A DNA stretch of 64,000 nt, taken from the NCBI GenBank assembly GCA_002780005.1, contig PEWV01000071.1, forward strand, positions 69,754 to 133,753, given 5' to 3'. This document shows, piece after piece, positions 50,201 through 53,200 of this stretch (positions are counted from its first letter, which is position 1; each line of letters opens with the position of its first letter). The DNA is from Candidatus Aquitaenariimonas noxiae (GTDB lineage Bacteria > Omnitrophota > Gorgyraeia > Aquitaenariimonadales > Aquitaenariimonadaceae). Position numbers: made by a program.

Positions 50201-53200
50201 TATATCTAAAAGCGGCGCTAAGGCCAGGATTTCTTCTTCCATAAAAAGAAAACATGAAGAGGAAGAAAAAGAGGAAAAGGGCTTAAGGAAAATAAAGAAC
50301 ACCCTGGCCCAGATCCGCAGGGAAGTTTCGCTCCTTATAGAAACGGTTGCGCTGAAAGGGACTATTCCTGCCGTTGAAATAGAGAAATTCATTCCGCAAA
50401 CGAAAGAAATGATCGAGCGGTTGGGAAACGGCAATATGAATTATCCTAAAAACATAATGACCAAGCTGGCCGTGACCAAGCTCAAGATCAACGACAAGTT
50501 AAACGAGATCTCCAAGCAAACGCAAGATGGAAAAGTAGAAGCGCTCGGATACCTTATAACACCTTCGCTGTTATCCATAAATTCCGCCATAAAAAATACC
50601 GTTGAAGCTATAGATAGCCTATAAATCCTAGCATACCAAAATTCTAGGAGGGAAATTGAACAAGCGCAAACAAAATTATAGCAAAAAAAGAGGATTACCG
50701 CTCAAACTCGTTTTTATCATATCAATATCGATACTAATCGGCGATGCATTTATTGAAGAACTTCTTTTCTTATTTTTTCCGACAATACCAGATAAGTACG
50801 TACCGTTTATAGACGCCTTGCTTCTTATCACTTTACTCTTACCCGTGCTTTACTTCTACCTGTATCGGCCTATCATCACCCAATTGGAGGAAACTAAAAG
50901 GGCTGAGGAGGTACTTCGAACTCTCGCGCTTTTTGACGAACTTACCGGATTGTACAATAGGCGGGGTTTCATGTCCCTTTCAGACCAGTTCTTAAGGCTT
51001 TCAAATCGCACAAAACGCGGGTTGATACTTGTTTTTGCTGATGTCGATAATATGAAACAAATAAATGATACTTTTGGTCATGCAGAAGGGGATAGGGCGC
51101 TTATTTGTACGGCCAGGGTGCTTCAAAACACCTTTCGAGGTTCTGATGTGATCGGAAGGGTGGGGGGGGGATGAATTCGCGGTGCTCGCATTGGAAGCTA
51201 AACACGAAAGCATGGATATCATCAGAAAGCGCTTGGCTGAAAACTTAAGAGCGGCGGAATGCAATCAACAAGCAAAATGCACTACTTCGCTTAGCATCGG
51301 AATGGTTCATTACAACCCGGAAAAGCCATGCCCGATAGAAGAATTGCTCCACAGGGCCGACATGCTTATGTATCAGGAAAAGAAATTTATTCAAGGCAAG
51401 TAAAAACAGAGTTGGCGAGTAAGATCTCTCGCCCATCTTCGATGGGCTCGAGATCCGAAATTTCCCTGGAACAAAAGCTGTAGAAATTTCGGAGGGGAAG
51501 CTGATATGGAAAAGGAAAATACGTTAAAGGAGTGGGAAATCAATATTTGCCCGCTCAGGAATAAGCAGTGTCTGCGCAAGCAATGCGCATGGTGGCTTGA
51601 AAACGAGAATATGTGCATAGTCAGGAAAACTGGCATCGGACCGTTTAAACGGGTCGAATAAAATAAGGGGGGAAATATGATAGTAATGAGAGCTATGGGA
51701 TTATTTGCCATTATACCGGCCTCGGTATTATTAACGATCAGCTATTTTGTATTGGCTGCAAATAAAAGGCAGGAGGAAGGCAATTTAAAAGCCTTCGGCT
51801 ATGTGACTGCGATTTTACTATGGATTGCCGCAAGCCTTGTTCTTTTAGCCGGAAGCTACACAGTCATAACCGGCAAACACCCCATGCAAATAATGATGAA
51901 GCATATGATGAAACAGTGCCCTATGATGAAAGACCCCATGGGCCCAATGTGCCAGATGCCTGAAATGCCGCCGCAGAAGTAGGGAATAACTATTATGGTA
52001 TCGGGTTTAGGGATTATGGGTTAGCAGGTAGGGATTAAAATGCTATTTAGCGTAACCATGGAAAAAGAAGAAGCCCTAAAGGCTAAAATGGGCTCATTGG
52101 GAATAAAAGAATCGGATTTAATCGAAAAATTCATACTTGCAAGCAAGAAAGGCGGGCAAAAGGTCAATAAAACGTCCGCGTGCGTTTATCTTAAGCATAT
52201 ACCTACGGGAATCGAGGTAAAGTGCCAAAAAGAACGCTCTCAAGCTTTGAACAGGTTTCTCGCCAGAAGAATACTCGCCAATAAAATCGAATCTCTTATA
52301 ATGGGCAAAAAATCAGAGGAACGAAAAAGAATAGAAAAAATAAGACGCCAGAAAAGAAAGCGTTCCAAAAGAGCTAAGGAGAAAATGCTCGAATATAAAA
52401 AAATGCATTCCGAAAAGAAAGAGCTGCGCAAGCCGCTAACTGCCGATTTTTAATGGAGGAAAAATATTATGAAAAGGAAGCCAATTTCCATCATCTGCCT
52501 TATATTAAGCACGTTATTCATTTATCCTGCATTAACGCATGCCCAAGAGATGAAGCCTATAAAGCTTCTACCGCCGCAACTGGCCGGCAGTAAACCGCTT
52601 ATGGAAGTCTTACAAGAAAGAAAAAGCGAAAGGGAATTTAGTTCAAAAGAATTGCCCCTGCAAATACTCTCGGACTTGCTTTGGGCCGCAGATGGTATAA
52701 ACAGGCCGGGTTCCGGCAAGCGGACCGCGCCAACAGCAATGAATCTGCAGGAAATCGATATCTACGTCGCGAAAACAGACGGTCTTTATTTATACGATGC
52801 TAAAGATAATGCGCTCGCACCTGTTTTGACCGAAGATGTCCGAGCTCAAACCGGAAGCCAGATATTTGTAAAGAACGCACCGATAAATCTTATCTTTGTA
52901 GCTGATTTTGCCAAAATGGGTAATGTTTCAGCCGATGACGCAAATTTCTACTCCGCTACTGATACAGGATATATCAGCCAAAATGTATATTTATACTGCG
53001 CTTCCGCAGGCCTTGTGACTGTTGTACGGGGATGGGTTGACAGGCCAGCCCTGGTTAAGGTTATGAAATTGCGCCCTGACCAAAAAATAATTCTTGCGCA
53101 AACCGTAGGATATCCAAAAGAATAGGCGTGGGAGAGGTAACGCAGAGGTTAAAATGCTGAAAAACCTTTCAAAACAGCTTTTTAAAATTAAAGATATCAA

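Follow-up and report, generated by a model that had tools for sequence, protein, structure and literature searches.

What is the status of a diguanylate cyclase gene whose reading frame breaks exactly within the codons of its own active-site signature? The question is raised by a 64-kb stretch of DNA from Candidatus Aquitaenariimonas noxiae (Omnitrophota; contig PEWV01000071.1 of assembly GCA_002780005.1, positions 69,754 to 133,753), hereafter the window, in which a run of nine consecutive G interrupts a gene for a GGDEF protein. Such a break could reflect a faulty consensus, a gene in decay or a mutational switch. We find that the locus is a genuine length-polymorphic and frameshifting poly-G tract, with ON and OFF alleles of the cyclase present in a natural population. 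Coordinates are those of the window and refer to the plus strand unless otherwise stated.

The whole cyclase gene occupies 50656..51403 and encodes two N-terminal hydrophobic segments followed by a GGDEF domain. A Shine-Dalgarno-like AGGAGGG (50646..50652) lies 3 bases 5' of the TTG start at 50656 and likely functions as such. In the window the sequence reads ...GAT GTG ATC GGA AGG GTG GGG GGG GGA TGA ATT C..., and the tract of nine G (G9) takes in the third base of the Val-169 codon, both glycine codons and the first base of the aspartate codon of GGDEF. A preliminary description of this DNA had correctly seen nine G in the glycine codons but had placed them one base too early, at 51161..51169 instead of 51162..51170. 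As at simple sequence repeat (SSR) contingency loci, a homopolymer of at least about 7-8 nt is found inside coding sequence. The 5' open reading frame (ORF) as printed, 50656..51174, encodes 172 aa ending in ...DVIGRVGGG before a TGA and represents the OFF product; as the stop directly follows GGG, in-frame translation of the window allele does not reach the DEF of the signature. With one G removed, the frame continues into a 248-aa protein (...DVIGRVGGDEFAVLALEAK...FIQGK*) ending at 51403, the G8 translation reading IGRVGGDEFAVLA... as far as that stop. The preliminary description was thus right that the printed frame ends in IGRVGGG*, that the cyclase is split exactly at the G-run and that the loss of one G restores it. 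The 3' remainder of the gene (51170..51403) reads D-E-F-AVLALEAK...FIQGK* once the frame is shifted and has no internal stop. It is annotated apart, as a 73-aa 'GGDEF domain-containing protein' (ORF 51182..51403, which the same description had also recognized; PIU41151.1, COS99_07375), and the two halves of the gene are deposited at NCBI as PIU41150.1 and PIU41151.1 (COS99_07370 and COS99_07375). Changes of a single G therefore toggle the frame: G8 gives 248 aa, G9 gives 172 aa and G10 gives an out-of-frame product of 197 aa, while G11 translates into 249 aa with GGGDEF. The reading frame 50656..51403 is open only with G8, and the window carries G9, the OFF allele.

As judged from its sequence, the G8 product is a putative active diguanylate cyclase. 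It matches the Pfam GGDEF profile PF00990 with E=4.1e-36 (residues 91-243, profile positions 1-156 of 161), whereas the 172-aa ORF of the window covers only the first part of this domain, and its closest PDB match is 4URS, a Thermotoga diguanylate cyclase (E=3e-25). In an alignment of 30 family sequences, the G8 product, with its complete GGDEF domain, carries every family-invariant residue. Five residues upstream of GGDEF lies an RxxD motif, RGSD (residues 161-164, codons 51136..51147), whose R161 and D164 are invariant in the same alignment and which, from the known PleD/WspR layout, is a putative I-site. Homologues at 45-60% identity form a compact family of ~250-aa proteins with two transmembrane segments and a GGDEF domain, the named ones being almost all from Omnitrophota. 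The R-[VI]-GGDEF motif is intact in all of them, and the orthologues at 50-60% identity are intact single in-frame ORFs of about 250 aa. Homologues of 160-190 aa were considered as frameshifts at the same motif and rejected; they are N-terminally truncated partials with an intact GGDEF. Like PleD, WspR and the Thermotoga maritima TM1788-type cyclases (PDB 4URS, 1W25), the G8 allele has the full GGDEF domain with its signature, the RxxD motif and the conserved D/N/K/R residues. Unlike in these cyclases, its N-terminus consists of two hydrophobic segments only, with no recognizable sensor domain, and in the window allele the signature is without its DEF and the domain without its C-terminal third.

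Is the G9 tract a property of the organism or of one assembly? Tract lengths were taken from assembled contigs at 17 fetched loci whose identity to the window exceeds 99.6% across 1-20 kb; they come from JGI, ENA (MEGAHIT), Logan and NCBI assemblies, all of a single Crystal Geyser groundwater population. The same DNA is found in a second NCBI metagenome-assembled genome (MAG), GCA_002322955.1, and in the ENA assembly of SRR1534154 from the Crystal Geyser project PRJNA229517. G9 is read at 13 of the 17 loci, and all 13 contigs encoding the 172-aa product read G9; the exact truncated product is present on at least 22 contigs, 13 under one spelling and 9 under another. Since many independent assemblies reproduce it, G9 is no consensus error and the truncation is real, which excludes for this allele the simple consensus or assembly error that the preliminary description had kept as an alternative. 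Two loci carry G8 (L007, a 27-kb contig of ENA ERZ27293347, and L009, an 11.6-kb contig of JGI 3300025021); in these the GG[DE]EF signature missing from the window allele is intact, and the exact 248-aa G8 product is present in ENA and JGI assemblies. The remaining two carry G10 (L008 from JGI 3300025827 and L010 from Logan SRR6240745), so that OFF alleles, G9 and G10 together, make up 15 of the 17 loci. A protein cluster at 90% identity comprises 12 members, which are the 172-aa (G9), 73-aa (downstream ORF), 197-aa (G10) and 248-aa (G8) products and a 177-aa alternative-start call; none of the 12 corresponds to G6, G7 or G11. A scan of metagenome contigs with a variable-length G gap returned only one G10 contig, already counted, and no further alleles. 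The comparison of the tract among related genomes that had been proposed at the outset therefore yields G8, G9 and G10 within one near-identical population, as expected of a slipped-strand site.

The behavior of other homopolymers provides a control. For 31 others of at least 7 nt in the multiply covered region 40657..61174, we find 0 length differences in 168 tract-by-assembly comparisons, against 4 of 17 at the G-tract, whose polymorphism among near-identical genomes hence goes beyond that of the control tracts. The sole other homopolymer indel affects an A6/A7-T6/T7 run in the neighboring flavodoxin gene. Moreover, the length alleles are associated with definite single-nucleotide polymorphisms (SNPs). 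G10 always occurs with a private SNP, 51239 G>A (E195K), in the output of two different assemblers, and is therefore a strain allele rather than random noise. G8 is found on the backgrounds 51577T/51619G (L007) and 51577C/51619A (L009) and G9 with both combinations; all four gametes are therefore present. Over 17 kb, L007 (G8) and L011 (G9) differ only at the tract and at one SNP. The four-gamete pattern fits recurrent slippage and is only suggestive of reversible switching within a clone. Unless recombination or chimeric consensus sequences are involved, the tract must have changed at least two to three times in a population that differs by ~20 SNPs per 20 kb, which would make it orders of magnitude more mutable than the average site. 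Sequencing error is an unlikely source of the G8 and G10 alleles.

Starting from what is directly observed, namely the tract, its frame effects, the three alleles, their differing SNP backgrounds and the stability of the control tracts, we propose that the G-run is a real, heritable and slippage-prone homopolymer in a putatively membrane-anchored GGDEF diguanylate cyclase of a Crystal Geyser Omnitrophota. Slipped-strand mispairing at replication would add or remove single Gs, G8 leading to an intact enzyme (...RVGGDEF...), the majority allele G9 to a stop after GGG, and G10 to the third frame. By virtue of these frame effects, the locus would act as a mutational ON/OFF switch for one source of cyclic di-GMP (c-di-GMP), the sampled population being mostly OFF with a minority ON. 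We favor, with moderate confidence, the view that this is a mutational ON/OFF switch of one cyclase whose adaptive value is unproven; that G9 can return to G8, and that switching brings any benefit, we infer.

The best-surviving alternative, which we regard as improbable but by no means negligible, is one-way decay. Here, a G8 that codon choice had produced by chance would have become G9 by slippage, with the loss of a cyclase that the cell can do without, and the OFF allele would be sweeping or drifting through the population; the G8 contigs would be surviving ancestral alleles and G10 a further slippage in a dead gene. The mutation mechanism would be the same, with no functional switching. 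A number of observations weigh against a switch, and several of them speak for decay, beginning with the predominance of OFF alleles. The tract is specific to this lineage; it is missing from the orthologues, which spell the motif ATC GGC GGC GAT (P0002) or ATA GGG GGC GAT (P0008), and this counts toward accident. From the codon usage of 30 window genes, the probability of GTG-GGG-GGG is ~0.205 x 0.207 x 0.207 = ~0.9%, so that the tract may be accidental, and GGGGGG accounts for 3 of 65 Gly-Gly dicodons, with no depletion. The tract is the only G/C run of at least 8 in the window, and no second one was found in the ~81 kb made up of the window and ~17 kb of fetched flanks; over this distance there is no sign of the tract set or enrichment that marks SSR contingency loci genome-wide. 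Its two overlapping G8 matches compare with 1.71 G8/C8 expected, which is within chance for 64 kb, the observed count being reached in 43 of 100 dinucleotide shuffles. What is noteworthy is therefore the position of the tract in active-site codons and its polymorphism, rather than its existence. The cyclase gene has three missense variants, all of them on OFF alleles, which hints at decay: T159A replaces an invariant residue, A178T affects a site with at least 90% conservation, and the third is E195K. The adjacent Flavodoxin_4 gene has a nonsense codon and a frameshift in the window and is intact in other assemblies, so loss-of-function alleles do segregate in this population. The tract lengths are assembly consensus, and within-sample heterogeneity and true reversibility lie at the level of reads. 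The four-gamete pattern could stem from recombination or from a chimeric consensus of mixed strains, and the independent samples are fewer than the contigs, since the same reads may underlie several of the JGI, ENA and Logan assemblies.

Decay, however, has to accommodate the occurrence of both G8 and G9 on at least two SNP backgrounds, which without recombination requires repeated tract events. Nor is the gene a fixed pseudogene, with a lesion in all members and secondary lesions besides: intact G8 alleles exist, and the 3' segment has just two missense SNPs and neither a stop nor an indel. The count of three nonsynonymous to no synonymous changes, considered as a sign of relaxed selection on the cyclase, proved non-discriminating, because the SNPs of intact genes nearby number 11 nonsynonymous and 5 synonymous and the missense excess of the cyclase is no greater than theirs.

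If the locus is a mutational ON/OFF switch, has it evolved as one? The evidence for an evolved switch versus an accident is mixed. Codons for x-G-G-D can hold no G-run longer than 8, and G8 is exactly the ON allele. The 3' part of the gene, free of stops and indels, also speaks for more than an accident, and among 66 listed matches to background R[VI]GGDEF sites from diverse genomes (distant GGDEF genes) the longest G-run is 7, none reaching 8. An apparent enrichment of poly-A was rejected, as A8/T8 runs in the window fall below the expectation from dinucleotide shuffles (20 vs 35.8), and this deficit suggests that slippery tracts are generally selected against in this window. Since long homopolymers are seemingly avoided and length-stable here, the G9 tract is an exception. 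It is possible, and we advance it only tentatively, that the tract has been selected as a contingency switch, the signature codons having taken the most slippery spelling that the peptide allows and the ultra-small groundwater Omnitrophota hedging stochastically between a c-di-GMP-high (attached or host-associated) and a c-di-GMP-low (free) state. Of the phase-variation switch put forward in the preliminary description, the length-variable tract that toggles the frame is confirmed; an evolved contingency locus is not, given the lack of another tract of at least 8 in ~81 kb, the orthologues without the tract and the ~1% outcome from codon usage. What is present is a real mutational ON/OFF polymorphism of a kind already known; adaptive phase variation is not demonstrated.

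A very improbable explanation is recoding, whereby G9 would still give full-length enzyme at a low, tuned level through RNA-polymerase slippage or +1 ribosomal frameshifting on GGG-GGG-GGA-UGA. V-G-G-D-E-F would be restored if the ribosome shifted by +1 on the second GGG or if RNA polymerase dropped one G, and a G-rich Shine-Dalgarno-like GGAAGGG lies just upstream; G9 is also a stable majority allele with an intact 3' frame, and the rescue of homopolymer frameshifts by slippage is known for A/T runs. Yet transcriptional slippage is best documented on A/T runs and less so on G runs, and the in-frame G8 alleles coexist with G9. The orthologues are in frame and devoid of the tract, so there is no conserved recoding site, and no frameshift-stimulating RNA structure was found downstream of the tract (minimum free energy z = -0.83 vs shuffles). 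We give just as little credence to an artefact, in which one true tract length is miscalled as G8, G9 and G10 during sequencing or assembly: polymerases and some platforms do make errors on long G-runs, low coverage is suggested by the shortness of the two G10 contigs (1.2 and 2.8 kb), and the lengths rest on contigs rather than inspected reads, but G9 comes from four pipelines and more than a dozen samples, G10 keeps its private SNP in two assemblers, G8 is found in two samples of differing SNP haplotype, and the control homopolymers do not vary.

The cyclase is preceded on the same strand, with short gaps, by genes for a MarC-family membrane protein and for a 161-aa protein without a Pfam match; there is weak evidence for a promoter-like site upstream of marC. 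The PilZ receptor that had been associated with the cyclase is a real gene on the minus strand (62588..63001; PF07238, E=4e-10, supported by a motif scan), and its product is a possible c-di-GMP receptor. The link between the two was drawn from their shared 64-kb window, in which they lie 11 kb apart, and nothing else connects them. The Flavodoxin_4 gene just upstream of the cyclase (47104..47586) is doubly broken in the window (lesions at 47169 and 47228), by a TGA for TGC at codon 22 and by a frameshift in an A6T6 run. In other assemblies this run is A7T6 in five and A6T7 in one, and an intact 160-aa protein is obtained from four; because the run reads A6T6, A7T6 or A6T7, a second three-state homopolymer segregates in the population. 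In the 800 bp that follow the cyclase, SNPs are clustered at 51577, 51619, 51942 and 51981. The last of these is a stop-loss, TAG->TTG, in ORF 51677..51982, which in assemblies L004 and L015 lengthens a Met-rich membrane protein from 101 to 115 aa. The stretch 47649..48716 encodes a deoxyhypusine synthase homologue (Pfam DS, E=1.4e-77), here in a bacterial genome, adjacent to small TauE-like (one profile end only) and GDT1-like (a single 75-residue unit) membrane ORFs.

Farther away, 1..17634 is a long co-directional cluster encoding glycosyltransferases (GT1, GT2, GT9 and GT28/MGDG-like), S-adenosylmethionine (SAM) methyltransferases, two carbamoyltransferases, a membrane protein of PMT_2-like type and an SxtJ-like protein. 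It extends upstream (L102) with further genes for GT2 enzymes and with genes for a sulfatase and a B12-radical-SAM enzyme, and is probably a surface-glycan modification locus. All genes of the 1..17634 cluster are intact, with no G/C tract of at least 8 among them, and the rest of the window, that is, this glycosyltransferase, methyltransferase and carbamoyltransferase cluster together with housekeeping genes, is likewise intact. A group-1 glycosyltransferase gene (4162..5280) has a polymorphic premature stop at 5257 (CAA->TAA, Q366*) in GCA_002322955.1 and ERZ909571, which drops the last 7 residues of the glycosyltransferase and the overlap with the next gene. In another Omnitrophota MAG, JAUYMS010000037.1, a G9 run (L027 5437..5445) lies in the G-rich stretch GATTGGGGGGGGGTTGGGGTTGAGGGGG, ~2 kb downstream of its GGDEF gene and apparently outside any convincing ORF.

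Contingency loci based on homopolymeric tracts are found in Campylobacter jejuni (poly-G/C), Neisseria and Haemophilus (reviews are cited in PMC8115180), and SSR phase variation is known mainly from host-adapted pathogens and surface antigens. The Omnitrophota locus shares with them an intragenic G-run of 8-10, a frame shifted by single-base changes, and length alleles among near-identical genomes. It differs in its host, an uncultivated free-living or episymbiotic groundwater Omnitrophota, in having only one tract in ~81 kb, and in its target, a cytoplasmic signaling enzyme instead of a surface structure, and it is known from assembled sequences alone. The closest published parallel that we found is provided by hypermutable mononucleotide tracts of 9 nt, 9C in Vibrio cholerae and 9T in V. 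fischeri, that lie in genes for putative diguanylate cyclases and were observed in mutation-accumulation lines; the authors proposed that they generate heterogeneity in biofilm-related c-di-GMP signaling (Dillon et al. 2017, PMC5854121). In both cases, a 9-nt homopolymer in a putative diguanylate cyclase gene is an indel hotspot; whereas the Vibrio tracts were seen in laboratory mutS-deficient lines, the variation described here is among alleles of a natural population, and in Omnitrophota it is the GG codons of the GGDEF signature themselves that form the tract. In Clostridioides difficile, the c-di-GMP phosphodiesterases PdcB and PdcC undergo phase variation by site-specific inversion of an upstream element (PMC9286219). 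There, as at this cyclase, a stochastic genetic ON/OFF of one c-di-GMP-metabolizing enzyme could reset many downstream behaviors, the difference being that a frameshifting homopolymer acts within a cyclase coding sequence here and an inversion acts on a phosphodiesterase there. We found no report in open-access text that brings together GGDEF, poly-G and phase variation or that describes a poly-G switch in GGDEF codons, and an Omnitrophota survey paper makes no mention of c-di-GMP, mismatch repair or phase variation.

It is worth noting that annotation of the two halves as separate 'hypothetical' and 'GGDEF domain' ORFs (PIU41150.1 and PIU41151.1) conceals a gene that is polymorphic and has an intact form. 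In general, a G-run as long as 8 can fit into the codons of a GGDEF motif, and such motifs may be indel hotspots that have drawn too little notice. With decay alone at work, the locus would be a polymorphic pseudogene of the ordinary kind. Were the switch functional, slippage by a single base would turn a whole second-messenger input on or off, creating heritable yet reversible subpopulations in an unculturable organism. Lastly, if the switch is also a selected one, SSR phase variation would extend to second-messenger signaling in an uncultivated environmental phylum.

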